Under the pieces are notes generated by a model, which did no database searches, was not told the origin of the DNA, and worked only from the letters and a program-made list of their open reading frames with translations. Positions 15,529-21,883 of a stretch of 64,000 nt of DNA are shown here, piece by piece. Both the position numbers and the translations under genes were made by a program. Source of the DNA: Candidatus Woesearchaeota archaeon (GTDB lineage: Archaea > Nanobdellota > Nanobdellia > Pacearchaeales > GW2011-AR1); the NCBI GenBank assembly GCA_964544395.1, contig CAZJAO010000001.1:41185-105184 (forward strand), read 5' to 3'. Numbering within the stretch: position 1 is the first letter of the stretch; the number at the start of each line of letters is the position of its first letter.

Positions 15529-16254
15529 ATGTCAAAAGAAAGGCTTTCTACAGGAAGTTATGATTTGAACAAGTGGCTATATGGAGGGTATGAAAAAGAT
15601 ATCATAACAATGATTGCAGGTTCTCCTGGAAGCGGAAAAACTAATTTTGCGATATTAGCTGCTTGCAGTCAAGCTAAAAAAGGATGCAAGGTTCTGTTCA
15701 TTGATACAGAAGGCGGATTTAGTGTTGACCGAGTTAAGCAGATCTCAGGAGAAAAATCAGAGGAGATTCTCAATAATATTTTCATTTTAAAGCCTACAAA
15801 CTTCAAGGAGCAGATGGAAGTAATTAACAACCTGAAAACGAAAATAAAAAAAGATTCTATAAGTCTGGTTGTGATTGATGGAATAGCTATGCTCTACAGG
15901 TTGGAGTTGGGAGACAATAGAAAAGACGATGAAGAAGTAAGGAGGATTAACCAAGAAGTTTCAAGGCAGATGAGAGATTTAGCAGAGATTGCAAGAAAAA
16001 TGGAAATCCCTGTAATAATAACAAATCAGGTTTATTCACAATTTCTTTCTGAAGAAGATTTAAGAAAAGGTGTTGAAAAAGAAACTAATATCGTAGGGGG
16101 GGATTTGTTCAAATATTGGAGCAAATGCATAATAAAATTATCCAATGATAACAAAAAAAGAAAGGCAGAATTGGTAAAGCATAGATTCCTTCCTGAAAAA
16201 GAGATATTTTTTGAAATAAGGAATGAAGGAATTTTCAAGAGGGGTTGGATATAA
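15529..16254 (+). CDS. radB: RadB-like RecA-superfamily ATPase
   Basis: Walker A GSPGSGKTNFAILAA, VLFIDTEGGFSVDRV; 241 aa without the RadA N-terminal HhH domain. Confidence 0.75.
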   Translation: MSKERLSTGSYDLNKWLYGGYEKDIITMIAGSPGSGKTNFAILAACSQAKKGCKVLFIDTEGGFSVDRVKQISGEKSEEILNNIFILKPTNFKEQMEVINNLKTKIKKDSISLVVIDGIAMLYRLELGDNRKDDEEVRRINQEVSRQMRDLAEIARKMEIPVIITNQVYSQFLSEEDLRKGVEKETNIVGGDLFKYWSKCIIKLSNDNKKRKAELVKHRFLPEKEIFFEIRNEGIFKRGWI

Positions 16255-17459
16255 TGGACGATATAAAATTTCAGGTTATCAAGAAAATAGCTGAAACTAA
16301 TTTCAAATACAAGGATTTGGGAAATATATCTAAAATAGACTCTACTTCTCCACCCAGCGTTTTCATAGGAAGCAAGCTAAGATATCCGATGGTAAATGTT
16401 GGAATTCTTTCTCCATTAGATAAAGATGAAAATGCTTGGATATATGATAACGAAAAATACTGGGCAAATAATAATTTCCAGATTAATGATGTTCTAAAAT
16501 TGAGAAATAGTTTGCTGAATTCAAGATTCCAGTCAAAAGTTCAGGATTCAAGGTTGAAAAAAAGATTTATCCAAATTGCGCAGGATATTGCTGTAGCTTC
16601 TCGTCCCGTAGATGTTGAGATACAATTAAGAAAAAATCTTAATCTCGGAAAGAATCAGGACAGAGTTGTAACCCCTCATGGAATGCATGCTGGTTTAAAG
16701 CAGGCAAAAATAACAGGCAATGTAAAGATAGATACCAAAGTTGACAAAGTCATGAATGATGAAATCAAAGCATCAGAAGGAATTGAATATCTCTACAAGA
16801 ATGAATTTACAGAATATTCTCTAAGCAAGATCTTAAGTGTTGGTGTTCTCGGATTGCAGAAAGACAAAAGACTTGTTCCAACGAGATGGAGCATTACTGC
16901 CACAGATGACACTTTAGGCAAATATTTGCTGAAAAGTGTAAGAGAATACAAATGGATTGAGAATTATGAACTATTCATGGGAGAATTTTTGGGAAACCAA
17001 TATCTTATCTTATTCTTTCCATCTGAATTTAACTTTGAATTATTTGAATTATATATGCCAAAAAGTTCCTGGAATCCATCAAGTGAAGTTAAAGCATCAA
17101 CAGACTCCGAGACTTATTCGGGGAGAAAAACATATGCATCAAACACCGCCGGAGGATATTATGCAACACGTCTTCCTATTTTGGAATATCTTAATAGAAT
17201 AAAACGTCAAGCTTCTGTATTGGCGATTAGAATTGAAACTCCAACCTACTGGGCAGGTTTGGGAGTTTGGGTCGTTAGAGAGTCTGTAAGGAAGTCTCTC
17301 AATAACGAACATTTTGAATTTGATGACATGAAGAAATTCATAGAAACCTCAAAAATCTTGGGAAACAAGAAATTCAATTTCAATTATACCACAATTATGG
17401 ATAAGAGCAAGTTAATCAAGCAAATCACGACTCAGAAAAATCTGAACCAATGGTTCTAA
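16254..17459 (+). CDS. conserved archaeal protein with C-terminal PCNA-interacting PIP box; possibly Nre-family DNA repair protein
   Basis: C-terminus ...TQKNLNQWF fits the PIP consensus QxxLxxWF and closely matches the FEN-1 C-terminus in this window (KQKNLERWF); placement directly after radB with a 1-nt overlap (TAATG); Nre assignment is from memory of COG1602-like proteins and is unverified; the ORF-track start at 16245 is TTG, the ATG is at 16254. Confidence 0.4.
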   Translation: MDDIKFQVIKKIAETNFKYKDLGNISKIDSTSPPSVFIGSKLRYPMVNVGILSPLDKDENAWIYDNEKYWANNNFQINDVLKLRNSLLNSRFQSKVQDSRLKKRFIQIAQDIAVASRPVDVEIQLRKNLNLGKNQDRVVTPHGMHAGLKQAKITGNVKIDTKVDKVMNDEIKASEGIEYLYKNEFTEYSLSKILSVGVLGLQKDKRLVPTRWSITATDDTLGKYLLKSVREYKWIENYELFMGEFLGNQYLILFFPSEFNFELFELYMPKSSWNPSSEVKASTDSETYSGRKTYASNTAGGYYATRLPILEYLNRIKRQASVLAIRIETPTYWAGLGVWVVRESVRKSLNNEHFEFDDMKKFIETSKILGNKKFNFNYTTIMDKSKLIKQITTQKNLNQWF

Positions 17460-17461
17460 TC

Positions 17462-17518
17462 ACCGCTTTTTTAATACAAAAGTAAAAAATAAAAAATAAA
17501 TGTTTTCAAGGAGATAGT
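17462..17518. terminator. bidirectional oligo-T/oligo-A terminator region between convergent genes
   Basis: gcttttttaa immediately after the + gene stop; on the minus strand ttattttttattttttac after the RRM gene stop; archaeal terminators are oligo-T tracts. Confidence 0.4.
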
Positions 17519-17881
17519 TTAGTATCTGCCTCTGCTGTTATTGTCTCTTCCACCGAAGCTTCTTCTCTGACCGCCGCCAAAACCGCCTTGTCTAGGTCCT
17601 CTGTTTCCAAAGTCTCTTCTAGGTGGTCTTGGTGCATCAGGGTCGAAAGGCTTAGCTTCAGACAACTTCAATTCTCTTCCTTTGAAGTCTTTTCCGTTCA
17701 ATTCAGAAATTGCTTTGTTAGCAGCTTCATCATCCGGAATTGTAACGAAACCAAAACCCTTTGATCTTCCGTTGAATTTATCTTTAATGAGTACAACTTC
17801 TTCAGTTTCAAAACCAGAAAAAAGCTCTTTCAAATCAGACTCTTCAACCGTGAAAGGCAAATTACCTACGTAAATTTTCAT
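17519..17881 (-). CDS. RRM-domain RNA-binding protein with a glycine/arginine-rich tail (bacterial glycine-rich RBP type)
   Basis: RNP-2 (KIYVGNL) and RNP-1 (KGFGFVTI) motifs; C-terminal RGG/GGF repeats; strong SD AGGAGG 7 nt upstream of the ATG. Confidence 0.9.
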   Translation of the reverse strand: MKIYVGNLPFTVEESDLKELFSGFETEEVVLIKDKFNGRSKGFGFVTIPDDEAANKAISELNGKDFKGRELKLSEAKPFDPDAPRPPRRDFGNRGPRQGGFGGGQRRSFGGRDNNSRGRY

Positions 17882-17988
17882 TTTATCCTCCTTACATTTA
17901 GTTAAGCGTAACAGAATTAGCTGTTTCTTTCCTTACTCCTCGTATTGCTGACATGCTATTGTTATAAAAGATGTGTTTAAAAACTTTT

Positions 17989-18069
17989 AGTTCCAAGATA
18001 GACAGTCCGAAAAGTAAGTAATAACCGAGAAGTGTCCGAATAGTTTTTCGGGCTGTCTAGTTCCAAGAT
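17989..18069. mobile_element. MITE-like miniature element: 11-bp direct repeats flanking 14-15-bp terminal inverted repeats around a ~30-nt core
   Basis: agttccaagat (17989-17999) | agacagtccgaaaag (18000-18014) ...loop... ttttcgggctgtct (18045-18058) | agttccaagat (18059-18069); the TIR/DR junction provides the TAG stop of ORF 18057-18437, while the left DR preserves the ancestral ...W N TAA reading. Confidence 0.55.
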
Positions 18070-18437
18070 GACATTACCTTTTTTGTATAATCTTTGCCCT
18101 TTGCTTTAATGGTAACATTACAAGTATAATATCTTGCAAATGTCTTGCCAGGCTTGTATGCTACTTTTATTGAAACATTCTCTATATCATTTAATTCAAT
18201 CTTTAATCTTTTCATTTCTGAATTAAACCATTTCTTATAACTCTCAATAACCTGTTTAACTTTTTTTGAGGTAAGATTTTCGGGAGTAATTGTTTCGTTC
18301 AATAGATTAATCTCAAATAACTTGGTGTTTTCAACAGGCAGGGATTCTATATAATGTAAAAATTCAACATTAGTTACACTAACAAAACTATCTGCTAAAT
18401 TATTTGCTACACCCAATAATTGACTAAATTTTCCCAT
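18057..18437 (-). CDS. hypothetical protein (3' end overlaps the MITE-like element)
   Basis: 126 aa, ATG start; C-terminal codons SSWN* are encoded by the duplicated 11-mer. Confidence 0.4.
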   Translation of the reverse strand: MGKFSQLLGVANNLADSFVSVTNVEFLHYIESLPVENTKLFEINLLNETITPENLTSKKVKQVIESYKKWFNSEMKRLKIELNDIENVSIKVAYKPGKTFARYYTCNVTIKAKGKDYTKKVMSSWN

Positions 18438-18438
18438 T

Positions 18439-20757
18439 TTATAAAAAAGAGACTTTATCTTCCGCCTCTGCCTCTTTCTTCTTCTGGTATTCTTCCATCC
18501 TTACCTTGTTTGTAGGGCATTGGGGATTAAAGCAGAAAATCCATGGCTTTCTGCCCTTTGAAAGTCTCATTAGCATAGGGAATCCGCATGCCTCACAGAT
18601 TTTCTCGGTTTTTTTGATTAGCCCATTCGGAGGCAGGCTGTAAGTGTTCTTGCATTCAGGATACTTGTTGCATGCGACAAAAGATCTTCGTGTCTTCTTG
18701 GAATATATTATTGCGAGATTTCCCTGTCCGCACTTAGGACATTTGTTCAAAGTATTCAATCTTTTTTGCTCCTCAATCAAATCAAGATTGGCTTCAAGCA
18801 ATTCTCTTCCAATATTATTCTTATTCTTATCAAAATGTACTATAATCTCTGTAATAGCATCTTCTGCTTCACGGATAATCTTGTCTTCTTTTTCCTGAAA
18901 TCCTTTATTCTCTTCCTGCATCCTTTCCATTTCATCTTCAAAATTTCTTGTCAGCTGTTCATCGATAATAATTGGTGAATATCTTTCCATTGTGGAAATC
19001 AACGACAAGCCAAGGGGGGTTGCTTCAATGCTTTTTTCCCTGATGTAACCCCGATCATAAAGAGTTTCCAGGATTGCAGCTCTTGTTGCTTTCGTTCCAA
19101 GATTTCTTTTTTCAAGTTCAGCCACAATTGAAGCAGGCGAATATCTTTTCGGTGGCTGCGTTTCTTTCTCTTCATTTCTTACTTTGGTAATTTCAAACTC
19201 GCCATCTGCATCGGGAATATTTTTTTCATCAATCTTAGCAGGATAAACTTCCATCCAGCCTTTCTTTCTGATAGAAGAGCCTTTTAATGTAAATTTCATT
19301 CCATCGATAACACCTGAAACTGTTTTTCTGTCAATAATTGCATCATCACAGAATAAAGCAACAAATCTTCTTACAATTAAATCATATAACTTCCTTTCTT
19401 CAGCAGATAATGTTGCGTCCATATTTTCACCTGTCGGGAAGATAGAAGGATGTGCTGAATCTGTTTTTTCTCCTTCAACAGGTTTGTCTCTTATAATTAA
19501 TTTCGTCATAGGATATTCTCTTGACAATTTTTTCAAAATCTCTCTATATTCAACAGATTCTGGAAGTTTCTGACTTGATGTTCTTGGATAAGAAATCATT
19601 CCGCCAAGATAAAGCGATTGTGCAATCTGCAGAGTTCTCGCAGGAGTAAAGCCGCAAAGCTTGTAAGCTTCGGTCTGCAAGGCCGTCAGATTAAAAGGAG
19701 GATTTGGGGGAATGCTCTGGCTTGTCTTCTCGGTCTTTAGCAAAATCTTCTTTCCTACAAGATTGTCAAATTTTCCAAGTTCTGCTTTATCAAAAATGTC
19801 TTTGTTATATTGAAGTTCAAAAATCATAGGACGTGTATCTTTGTTCTGGACTGTGATAAATACGTCCCAATACTTTACTGGCTTGAATTCCTGAATTTCT
19901 CTTTCTTTCTCAACAATAATATTAAGTGTCGGTCCTTGAACTCTTCCGATAGACATTATCTTGAATCTCCCCGTTGATTTTATAGCATCCATCAATGCTC
20001 TTGATAAATTAATTCCATAAAGCCAATCAAGATAATGCCTTGTTTCTCCTGCAATCGCCTGTCCCCAATCAAGATGAGGAAGTTTGTTATCATAAGAATT
20101 GTTCAATTCAGCAGAGGTTAATGTTGAAAATTTCATCCTGTTTGCATCTTCCTGCCCGCAAAGATATCTTACAATATTCAATCCAATAACTTCACCTTCC
20201 ACATCATAATCTGTAGCGATGGTCACGCTTCCAGCGCCTTTTACCAGTCTTAAAATAGAATCATAATATCTTTTCGTGAAATCATTTTTCTTGGCTAAAT
20301 AATTTGGAACCCAGTAAATATCAAAAACAGGTGTCCCAGCATTTCTTGTCCTTTGCGTCAGAGTAAACAAATGTCCGACAGCACAGGTTACAATAATTTT
20401 CTTTCCCTTTCTGTCAACTTCATAATAATTAACTCCTCCGATATTTTTCGTTGTAGCTTTTCCTAGGGCGCTTGCAATTTTTGCAGCTGCTTGTGGCTTT
20501 TCAGTTATAACTAATTCATATCCTTCTTTCTTGAGCTTAAATTTGGAAGATTCATATTTAACAGAACCAGATATTTTTTTTCCTGAAACAACTCTCTTCT
20601 TGCCTCTTTTTTTGGATCTCTTTATTTCAACAGTCGGCAAAGGCAATGCCTTAACAGACTTTTTCTCAACAGCATGAGCCAAATCAGTCTCACTTATAGG
20701 AAAATAATTCTCTGCTGTAACCTGTTCACGACTTTTCGTTTTCTTTTTTCTAAGCAT
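18439..20757 (-). CDS. topA: DNA topoisomerase I/III (type IA) with C-terminal zinc ribbons and a basic N-terminal extension
   Basis: Toprim start YELVITEKPQAAAKIA, type IA core motifs, C-terminal Cys4 ribbons (CPKCGQG...CNKYPECKN; CEACGFP...CFNPQCP); the ORF-track start at 20871 is TTG, the first ATG at 20757 (MLRKKKTK...) is used; ~85 basic residues precede Toprim. Confidence 0.85.
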   Translation of the reverse strand: MLRKKKTKSREQVTAENYFPISETDLAHAVEKKSVKALPLPTVEIKRSKKRGKKRVVSGKKISGSVKYESSKFKLKKEGYELVITEKPQAAAKIASALGKATTKNIGGVNYYEVDRKGKKIIVTCAVGHLFTLTQRTRNAGTPVFDIYWVPNYLAKKNDFTKRYYDSILRLVKGAGSVTIATDYDVEGEVIGLNIVRYLCGQEDANRMKFSTLTSAELNNSYDNKLPHLDWGQAIAGETRHYLDWLYGINLSRALMDAIKSTGRFKIMSIGRVQGPTLNIIVEKEREIQEFKPVKYWDVFITVQNKDTRPMIFELQYNKDIFDKAELGKFDNLVGKKILLKTEKTSQSIPPNPPFNLTALQTEAYKLCGFTPARTLQIAQSLYLGGMISYPRTSSQKLPESVEYREILKKLSREYPMTKLIIRDKPVEGEKTDSAHPSIFPTGENMDATLSAEERKLYDLIVRRFVALFCDDAIIDRKTVSGVIDGMKFTLKGSSIRKKGWMEVYPAKIDEKNIPDADGEFEITKVRNEEKETQPPKRYSPASIVAELEKRNLGTKATRAAILETLYDRGYIREKSIEATPLGLSLISTMERYSPIIIDEQLTRNFEDEMERMQEENKGFQEKEDKIIREAEDAITEIIVHFDKNKNNIGRELLEANLDLIEEQKRLNTLNKCPKCGQGNLAIIYSKKTRRSFVACNKYPECKNTYSLPPNGLIKKTEKICEACGFPMLMRLSKGRKPWIFCFNPQCPTNKVRMEEYQKKKEAEAEDKVSFL

Positions 20758-20827
20758 GATTTTAGTATAAAAGAGGCATTTTTTAACTTTGTGATATATT
20801 TTTAATATAAAAAATCTTGAAATAAAG

Positions 20828-21883
20828 ATGGTTAATTTGAAATGGAGAAAAACTAAGTTCTTAGTATCCAAATTGCCTCCAAAATTATCAATCGGGGTTT
20901 ATTCTCTGGGACGCCAAGTATTCTTGTCCGGGATGAAAAGAGAAACTCCAAAAGAAGCTTATGTCCCCCCTCAAAGCCTGAACAGGAAATTATGGGGCAT
21001 TGATTTTAGAACTCCTTTATTTAATGCAGCGGGAGTGTTCAAGGATTTCAGCTGTTATGATTTAGCATTCAAACAGGGCGCAGGAGCTTATTTGGTAGGA
21101 ACAATAACTCCTACGAGTAATGAAGGAAATCAGATTAATAGTATTCACCTGCCATTTGCAATTTATCCAAATTCTCATGCATCTTCAAATTCATTAGGAC
21201 TGCCTAATAAAGGAATAATCAAGATATTGAAAGGAATTTCTGAAATTGAACGGCATGAAGGATTTCCAATTGGAATAAGCTTAACATCAGACTCTTTGGA
21301 AGAATTAGTGTATTCACTGCAATTATGTGAAGGGAGCAGGATTGATTTTGTTGAACTTAATGAAAGCTGCCCAAATAAAAAAAATGCAGGGAATTTGAAG
21401 CAGAGATTGGAATACGTAAAGAAAAAATTCCTAGAAAAAGCAGATTTTCCCGTTATTATCAAGCTTTCAAATGATTTGGATTTTGCTCAAATTCCAGACA
21501 TTATGGATTCGCTCTTTGAACTCGGTTATGATGGAATAAATCTGGGGAATAGTTCAACAGATTATCATGCGATAAGGAATAAAATTCATTTGAAGGATTT
21601 GCCTCTTTATGATTTTTTCACAAAAAATTTCAAGGGAGGAGTAAGCGGTGAACCATTAAAGCATATATCTTTAGAATTGTCAAGCATCGCAGTTCAATAT
21701 GTTAAAGCAGCTTCTCCACGGCAAGAATTTCATGTTACAAGAACAGGAGGAATTCAAACTCGGGAAGATATTTCTGCTTCTGAAGAAGCGGAGATATCAT
21801 TAAACCAAATGGGTGTTGGATATTTTGAGAGTTTAATTGCTCATGGAAATGATTTGTATAAAGATATCTGGGAGAAAGAATAA
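20828..21883 (+). CDS. pyrD: dihydroorotate dehydrogenase-family flavoenzyme (PyrD-like)
   Basis: FRTPLFNAAGVFKD, LGLPNKG, VELNESCPN and TGGIQTREDI match DHODH/DHPD family signatures; 351 aa. Confidence 0.65.
   Translation: MVNLKWRKTKFLVSKLPPKLSIGVYSLGRQVFLSGMKRETPKEAYVPPQSLNRKLWGIDFRTPLFNAAGVFKDFSCYDLAFKQGAGAYLVGTITPTSNEGNQINSIHLPFAIYPNSHASSNSLGLPNKGIIKILKGISEIERHEGFPIGISLTSDSLEELVYSLQLCEGSRIDFVELNESCPNKKNAGNLKQRLEYVKKKFLEKADFPVIIKLSNDLDFAQIPDIMDSLFELGYDGINLGNSSTDYHAIRNKIHLKDLPLYDFFTKNFKGGVSGEPLKHISLELSSIAVQYVKAASPRQEFHVTRTGGIQTREDISASEEAEISLNQMGVGYFESLIAHGNDLYKDIWEKE

Follow-up and report, generated by a model that had tools for sequence, protein, structure and literature searches.

Where does an RNA recognition motif (RRM) gene in the genome of a DPANN archaeon come from, and what might its product do there? 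RRM proteins are usually regarded as eukaryotic, with a scattered presence in bacteria, and to our knowledge the post-transcriptional regulation of DPANN archaea is essentially unknown. The gene considered here (17519..17881, minus strand; ATG start, 120 aa) lies in a 64,000-nt stretch from Candidatus Woesearchaeota archaeon (contig CAZJAO010000001.1, positions 41,185 to 105,184), hereafter called the window, whose numbering is used unless another locus is named. A first, sequence-only reading had taken it for a bacterial-type glycine-rich RRM gene in an archaeal context, acquired horizontally and possibly stress-regulated. The bacterial type and the archaeal context were borne out, as the nearest outgroup is bacterial and the neighbours (Nre, a RadB-like ATPase, Rpo11, which is RNA polymerase subunit L, and aRF1) are clearly archaeal. 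On the origin and role of the gene, our analysis favours, with a probability of about 0.7, a vertically inherited DPANN RRM protein of the RNA chaperone or global-regulator type, with control of its own synthesis mediated by the mRNA leader.

The protein is a bona fide RRM_1 member. Pfam RRM_1 (PF00076) matches residues 3-72 over profile positions 1-70 of 70 with 77.5 bits (E=7.3e-22; curated cut-off 20.7 bits) and is the sole Pfam domain of the 120-aa protein. The canonical motifs that had been recognized by eye are in place, with RNP-2 (IYVGNL) at residues 3-8 and RNP-1 (KGFGFVTI) at residues 41-48. An AlphaFold model, for which 48 relatives served as input, arranges the domain in the beta-alpha-beta-beta-alpha-beta order (strands 2-8, 28-32, 42-47 and 72-75; helices 14-20 and 51-61), with both RNP motifs and their aromatic residues on predicted strands beta1 and beta3 (2-8 and 42-47). 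The predicted local distance difference test score (pLDDT) is around 70 for the domain and below 50 from residue 89 on, indicating a disordered C-terminus. RRM matches in the PDB at E<=1e-3 numbered 619, and the best structural matches of the model were bacterial single-RRM proteins: AbElavl of A. baumannii (7QZP; TM score 0.89, 42% identity) and 'RNA binding protein PG1' (7JLY; TM score 0.81, 44% identity), both solved as constructs without the basic tail. The Pfam match, the predicted fold and the structural matches support a domain at residues 1-78 (17648..17881, minus strand).

The remainder of the protein (residues 79-120 and the TAA stop; 17519..17647, minus strand) is a basic, Arg/Gly-rich tail that is disordered judging from its composition and pLDDT. 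Its 42 residues include 10 Gly, 10 Arg, 5 Pro and 4 Phe (pI 11.8). It had been called an RGG/GGF-rich tail, which is right as to the Arg/Gly richness, one GGF and two FGG motifs, but a literal RGG does not occur. The linker that follows the domain, EAKPxDPDxPRPPRRxF (here EAKPfDPDaPRpPRRdF), is nearly invariant among the 48 relatives, and the protein ends in an aromatic residue. One N-terminal RRM followed by a Gly-containing tail is the architecture of the glycine-rich RRM proteins, with a Gly content that is modest compared with the bacterial members. The best NCBIfam match is Rbp_regulator (NF058537) with 90.1 bits, which is under the 100-bit equivalog cut-off, so that the protein is not a filed member; public pipelines already annotate members of its family as 'RNA-binding protein'.

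Tail length and Gly content vary in the DPANN clade described below: of its 30 proteins, 12 fall short of 100 aa, and Gly occurs in the tail of 16. A C-terminal aromatic residue with Arg before it (…RRF, …GRY, …RDW) is shared by 21 of these 30 proteins and 36 of 49 bacterial single-RRM proteins; this ending is seen whatever the tail length and looks like a conserved feature. In a close relative on a 250-kb metagenome contig (P0045) the RRM domain is intact, the C-terminus is frameshifted or rearranged and unrelated sequence stands in place of the basic tail, which may represent a natural tail-loss variant or an assembly error.

Descent of the RRM gene

Homologs were collected by a pattern-seeded scan of one genome per GTDB species, from which the best 80 hits were used. 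The best 30 hits all come from species of Nanoarchaeota, Woesearchaeota or Pacearchaeota (53-86% identity), and bacteria of many phyla rank after them (44-61% identity). In a bootstrapped neighbour-joining (NJ) tree of the 82-residue domain alignment, the 30 archaeal sequences form one clade nested among bacterial sequences, the sister group of which is not resolved. Because the domain is so short, the moderate bootstrap value of this clade (57.5%) is as expected. RNP-1 contains GFGFVT in 28 of the 30 DPANN proteins versus GFGFVE in 44 of 51 bacterial ones and holds one of two clade signature columns. The protein of the window shows the marks of the clade, grouping without bacteria in the NJ tree and carrying VT in RNP-1 and the PRPPRRDF linker. 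Phylogeny thus puts archaeal proteins nearest, in what appears to be a vertically inherited clade. RRM proteins had been described as rare in archaea, which may hold generally, but they are common in this lineage. A profile search of 1.84 billion representatives for the size of the DPANN family was uninformative, being swamped by multi-RRM eukaryotic proteins.

The gene order TopA-RRM-Nre-RadB-Rpo11 is kept in six species (the related loci L011-L015 and L018), with no more than 56-91% identity between their neighbouring proteins and those of the window. In the remaining 24 DPANN species the RRM gene stands in unrelated contexts; the Pfam hits of the genes that flank it there, tried as a check on the domain of life, were not diagnostic. 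At least 23 contigs, drawn from several metagenomes, encode an identical protein, and its neighbours are the same on every one of them. The nonsynonymous divergence (dN) of the RRM gene from the window is 0.048 in L012, 0.081 in L011 and 0.17-0.21 in L015 and L014, rising in step with that of the neighbours, and its ratio to the synonymous divergence (dN/dS) is 0.09-0.18. The clade of 30 DPANN relatives, the synteny in six species and the way in which dN tracks the neighbours contradict the horizontal acquisition that had been proposed.

A recent acquisition from bacteria by this genome, with the Shine-Dalgarno (SD) sequence and a nearby mobile element as traces of the import, would fit the bacterial type of the family, whose nearest non-DPANN relatives are bacterial, as well as the total GC content of the gene (0.408, rank 60 of the 61 window genes) and the presence of an inverted-repeat element 107 nt upstream of its start codon. 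The high total GC, however, is due to the Gly and Arg codons of the tail: the domain has a GC content of 0.358 (0.351+/-0.026 for window genes), and the GC content at third codon positions is 0.314, compared with 0.302+/-0.041. Synonymous codon choice ranks 43 of 61 in atypicality, so codon usage, which had been suggested as a check, is ordinary for the window, and a composition analysis of the window revealed no compositional island. The archaeal promoter, consisting of a transcription factor B recognition element (BRE) and a TATA box, is conserved across the family together with the strong SD. Because of this conservation the SD is not a bacterial relic, and the element, a later strain-specific insertion that ends before the BRE/TATA, lies outside the unit. 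With closest homologs that are all DPANN and form one clade, and with the same genomic slot and co-divergence with the neighbours in six species, we regard a recent import as extremely improbable.

These comparisons suggest that the RRM family is a long-standing, vertically inherited component of the Nanoarchaeota sensu GTDB (Woese- and Pacearchaeota, DPANN) and was not recently imported. Because the nearest outgroup is bacterial, the family is of the bacterial 'Rbp' type and, with a vertical archaeal clade, any inter-domain transfer would therefore be ancient. An ancient transfer, in either direction, near the base of the archaeal clade is plausible as the most economical origin.

Promoter, leader and conserved boxes

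The promoter of the RRM gene (17976..17987, minus strand) comprises the TATA box TTTTTAAA at 17976-17983 (-102 from the ATG), preceded by a purine-rich, BRE-like AAAG. The conservation shared with the sister species L012 starts exactly here, and an equivalent BRE/TATA, ACAAACnTTTAAAAcc, is located upstream of DPANN RRM genes in other contexts. The geometry of the promoter would place the 5′ end of the mRNA at Box 1, the first of three conserved boxes, giving a 5′ leader of about 73 nt (17882..17954, minus strand) that is unstructured and highly conserved. The boxes, all on the minus strand, are Box 1, ATGTCAG (consensus [AC]TGT[TC]AG; 17948..17954), Box 2, CTAATTCT (consensus CTRATTCT; 17913..17920), located mid-leader and conserved in DPANN loci with unrelated flanks, and Box 3, TGTAAGGAGG (consensus [AG]TGTAAGGAGGAT; 17887..17896), which is the SD with a conserved 5′ extension. 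The columns of Box 3 are invariant or at least 90% conserved in 23 species, and the window contains one exact copy of it. The SD itself (AAGGAGG, 17887-17893), with a 5-nt spacer to the ATG, is among the strongest in the window, in agreement with the sequence-only reading. In the 9 loci in which both motifs could be located by pattern, 28-33 nt separate Box 1 from the 5′ end of the TATA box upstream of it, practically the distance found between TATA box and ATG in the leaderless genes of the window. UGUNAG is common to Boxes 1 and 3.

Among the 61 genes of the window, TATA-like octamers peak at -32..-25 from the start codons (n=26 there), which is the arrangement expected for leaderless mRNAs, and an SD-like core precedes only 9. 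From this pattern it seems that many of the promoter-proximal genes of the organism, and perhaps the majority, are expressed from leaderless mRNAs. SD sites are found at several internal operon genes (e.g. 12505, 13737, 21884 and 34287). The RRM gene has no TATA-like octamer at -32..-25 and one at -102.

A profile built from the leader matched only upstream of RRM genes, in 24 of the 30 DPANN species and with unrelated flanks, and the 50 bacterial loci examined yielded no match. As a held-out set we used 80 newly fetched metagenome loci (202 kb) that had not entered the profile. Hits were obtained in 6 of them, the closest relatives, each ending at most 10 nt from the start codon of the RRM gene, and nowhere else in the 202 kb. 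This held-out search confirms the three conserved boxes in the leader, which constitutes the new part of the finding. The leader exists and is conserved; its mechanism is what we infer below.

Over 17882-17987 the window and L012 are 90.6% identical, and the 3′ half of the leader together with the first 120 nt of the coding sequence reaches 95-97%, the most conserved stretch of the block. By comparison, identity to L012 is about 80% in the neighbouring genes, where synonymous sites are saturated, and 38-72% in other intergenic DNA. The synonymous divergence (pS) of the RRM gene is also low, at 0.31-0.59 versus 0.55-0.87 for flanking genes, at every depth compared (L012, L011 and L014), which suggests selection on the mRNA sequence or on codon choice, as in very highly expressed genes. 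A recent homologous recombination of the cassette among related nanoarchaea would produce the same picture between sister species without any constraint, and the 95-97% identity across about 180 nt and the pS of 0.31 against L012 (0.55-0.74 for flanking genes) are consistent with it. However, pS is reduced at greater depth as well (0.39 vs 0.70-0.79 for L011; 0.59 vs 0.78-0.87 for L014), dN still scales with the neighbours, and the boxes are still there in unrelated contexts where protein identity is down to 55-70%, which leaves recombination an improbable explanation.

RNAalifold found 0 conserved pairs in 23 leader sequences, the single-sequence fold had a z-score of -0.56, and Rfam contained no family at the gathering threshold for the leader; a riboswitch or thermometer was dropped as a candidate on these grounds. 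Because the leader lacks conserved structure, the constraint acts on its linear sequence, which is what the target of a protein that binds single-stranded RNA would show. Box 2 was also considered as a genome-wide motif and rejected, as it is not enriched in the window (11 observed versus 10.6 expected).

The boxes could alternatively act at the DNA level as transcription-factor operators, or through a short upstream open reading frame (uORF) that begins at Box 1 and whose termination beside the SD would control translation of the main ORF, and not as a site for the RRM protein. Box 1 is placed where the start codon of a leaderless mRNA would be, and a possible leaderless uORF, MSAIRGVRKETANSVTLN, runs from there for 18 codons to a TAA (17898-17954, minus strand), followed at once by an ATG-TAA inside Box 3. 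The window and L011-L014 share this frame of 18 codons, which closes with a stop 4 nt ahead of Box 3; in L040 it has 20 codons, and in L016 and L030 it ends in the TAA of Box 3 itself. Most spacings between Boxes 1 and 3 are 1 mod 3, among them those of 58, 55, 52, 46, 64 and 43 nt. However, Box 1 has CTG in place of ATG in five GTDB species (six loci: L024, L028, L029, L033/L034 and L036) and in three of the new metagenome loci, an early stop occurs in four others, and the peptide is not conserved, with 3 nonsynonymous and 1 synonymous changes between the window and L012. As for an operator on DNA, we saw none of the palindromes typical of one. A uORF is thus possible in part of the clade, and the CTG variants and early stops argue against it as a general mechanism; taken together we consider the DNA-level or uORF explanation unlikely, while granting it more weight than any other alternative discussed here.

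The TopA junction and the inverted-repeat element

Three sister species show the junction of TopA with the RRM gene to be a hot spot for insertions (window 17988-18440; L011:3714-6000; L012:5883-6000). It contains ORF126 and the inverted-repeat element in the window and glmS with a 78-aa ORF in L011; in L012 nothing is inserted, and the stop codon of TopA is directly followed by the same 118-nt promoter/leader. Conservation past the junction restarts at the BRE/TATA in all three. The C-terminal residues of TopA differ with the insertions (...DKVSFL in the window, ...EEGN in L012 and ...GNTSN in L011).

The element (17988..18069) consists of a 58-nt core (18000-18057) with 15-nt imperfect terminal inverted repeats that are 93% complementary. 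On either side of the core stands a 12-bp direct repeat, TAGTTCCAAGAT, in exact copies at 17988-17999 and 18058-18069. The element folds into a stable hairpin (-21.2 kcal/mol, z=-3.7), for which Rfam gave only a chance plant-miRNA-like match (E=0.095). All 10 contigs of this strain carry the element, which stops 4 nt short of the BRE and leaves the RRM unit intact. The last codons of ORF126 (...SSWN) are made up of one of the two 12-bp repeat copies; the homologs of ORF126 end in ...SSYS. L012 lacks the element. Because L012 also lacks ORF126, whose 3′ end forms one of the repeat copies, this locus is not a true empty site. We rejected the idea that the element is the native 3′ structure of ORF126, since its homologs elsewhere have no hairpin and leave 6-23 nt to the next gene.

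The sequence-only reading had described the element as similar to a miniature inverted-repeat transposable element (MITE) and as a sign of import. The inverted ends fit that description, and the element is small and non-coding, with the 12-bp repeat as a possible target-site duplication, but multiple dispersed copies are wanting: a second copy was absent from the 64-kb window, from 886 kb of related loci, from a viral scan and from a JGI metagenome scan, the last a weak negative because known JGI contigs were themselves not returned. The element is accordingly MITE-shaped, single-copy in everything searched and a candidate MITE only. It is a later, strain-specific insertion outside the RRM unit and says nothing on the origin of the RRM gene.

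ORF126 (18057-18437, minus strand) belongs to a DPANN-only family of 90 clusters with a fixed length of 126 aa, 48-83% identity and no Pfam domain. Its homologs in other genomes are located behind a ParA/MinD-type ATPase, near ScpA, and a role as partner of a chromosome-segregation ATPase is possible. In the window the gene has moved to a place behind TopA, where it starts 1 nt after the TopA stop, and its GC content is low (0.286). The mechanical ORF call over-extended two neighbours: TopA (18439-20871, minus strand), with 810 aa from a TTG overlapping the divergent DHODH gene (772 aa on public contigs), and Nre (16245-17459, plus strand), with 404 aa from a TTG (401 aa on public contigs). 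Nre is convergent with the RRM gene. The 59-nt gap between the two contains two T6 runs (17484..17496, minus strand), read from the sequence 23-35 nt past the stop codon of the RRM gene, that are likely to function as an archaeal oligo-T terminator.

Proposed function and regulation

The closest functional parallel comes from Bacteroides, whose RRM-1 proteins are induced by cold, are required for growth at low temperature and come from transcripts with 122-155-nt 5′ untranslated regions (UTRs); these proteins repress their own expression, partly via the 5′ UTR (PMC13370968). They were proposed to bind single-stranded RNA globally and to be negatively autoregulated cold-shock proteins of a non-canonical kind (PMC13370968, PMC11697453), and RbpB binds single-stranded RNA regions globally (PMC11697453). 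Like the DPANN protein, Bacteroides RbpA, RbpB and RbpC have a single RRM of about 80 aa and a short unstructured C-terminal tail, with no other domains, and the transcripts share the long 5′ UTR. The DPANN protein differs in its archaeal host, the BRE/TATA, an RNP-1 ending in VT instead of VE and the PRPPRRDF linker, and its leader has no similarity to any of the bacterial loci examined.

The cyanobacterial Rbp proteins combine one RRM with a Gly-rich tail, and tail-less paralogs or orthologs coexist with them, as in DPANN; they differ in that many bacterial members contain 60-75% Gly, whereas the tail here is Arg-rich with 24% Gly. Maruyama et al. (1999, cited in PMC9313427) are reported to have described these proteins (e.g. 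Anabaena RbpA1) as cold-regulated glycine-rich RRM proteins. The eukaryotic CIRBP/RBM3, plant GRP7-type proteins and NtGR-RBP1 also have an RRM followed by an RGG- or Gly-rich tail (sequence matches at E~1e-12-1e-13) but are more distant than the bacterial proteins, and the similarity of their tails to those of DPANN is probably convergent. E. coli CspA, a small nucleic-acid chaperone with a long 5′ UTR that regulates its own expression (PMC13370968), is a functional analogue only, with an OB/cold-shock fold unrelated to the RRM; its 5′ UTR works by a temperature-dependent structure, in contrast to the DPANN leader, which has no conserved structure.

The neighbourhood of TopA, Nre and RadB, kept in six species, and the deposition of an H. 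pylori homolog as 'Ss-DNA binding protein 12RNP2' (2ki2) would allow the protein to work on DNA or together with its neighbours, e.g. as a single-stranded DNA binder, and not as a general RNA chaperone. However, the RRM gene, which runs towards Nre, has a promoter and a likely terminator to itself, its contexts in the other 24 DPANN species are unrelated, and characterised bacterial relatives bind RNA (PMC11697453, PMC9313427). We therefore rate a role on DNA as quite improbable, less probable even than recombination of the cassette. By analogy with the bacterial proteins, the RRM protein is most likely a general RNA chaperone or a cold-shock-like regulator with leader-mediated (auto)regulation.

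In the mechanism that we propose, the RRM gene forms a self-contained unit with its own BRE/TATA about 102 nt upstream, the leader of about 73 nt, the strong SD and the oligo-T runs past the stop codon. Transcription would yield a leader with UGUYAG at its 5′ end, CURAUUCU in the middle and UGUAAGGAGG fused to the SD. The protein, by homology with Bacteroides RbpA, RbpB and RbpC, would bind single-stranded RNA broadly and serve as an RNA chaperone or as a global regulator at the post-transcriptional level, possibly in a cold-shock-like manner; stress regulation, as raised in the sequence-only reading, is plausible by analogy. With leaderless mRNAs typical of the promoter-proximal genes of this genome, the conserved leader most likely mediates post-transcriptional control of the protein's own synthesis, for example if the RRM protein on the UGUNAG boxes occluded the SD. 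That the leader is regulatory at the RNA level we consider fairly probable; direct autoregulation through it is a tentative proposal that we would sooner doubt than accept.

Several points weigh against this account of descent and control. The monophyly of the DPANN proteins is backed by a bootstrap of 57.5% only, from 82 residues and a simple NJ tree; the sampling, being the best 80 hits of a pattern-seeded scan, does not quantify presence across the lineage; and the taxonomy of the related loci comes from database labels, the Pfam hits of non-syntenic flanking genes not being diagnostic. The low pS of the RRM gene (0.31 versus 0.55-0.74 for its neighbours) could also reflect recombination among close relatives. 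The leader boxes are missing from 6 of the 30 DPANN loci, and the transcription start at Box 1, and hence the extent of the leader, is deduced from promoter geometry.

Among the papers searched, none described an RRM protein family of DPANN archaea. The eukaryotic RRM repertoire has been explained as a bacterial acquisition, the domain being present in some bacteria (PMC9887622). A single bacterial-type RRM protein that a whole archaeal lineage has retained, with strong purifying selection acting on it, is a data point on the inter-domain exchange of RNA-handling proteins. The protein is a candidate general RNA chaperone for DPANN archaea, and its leader is a concrete, testable regulatory element. 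In its most specific and doubtful form, our proposal is that the DPANN RRM leader of about 60-85 nt is a lineage-specific translational operator, in which the UGUNAG boxes and CURAUUCU would be bound by the RRM protein itself, perhaps with a contribution in some lineages from a leaderless uORF ending at the SD, so that synthesis of what is possibly the main RNA chaperone of such reduced genomes would be autoregulated and possibly cold-responsive. If this were true, no cis-regulatory mRNA leader would have been reported from DPANN archaea before this one, which would also be an exception that depends on an SD amid the common leaderless starts of this genome.

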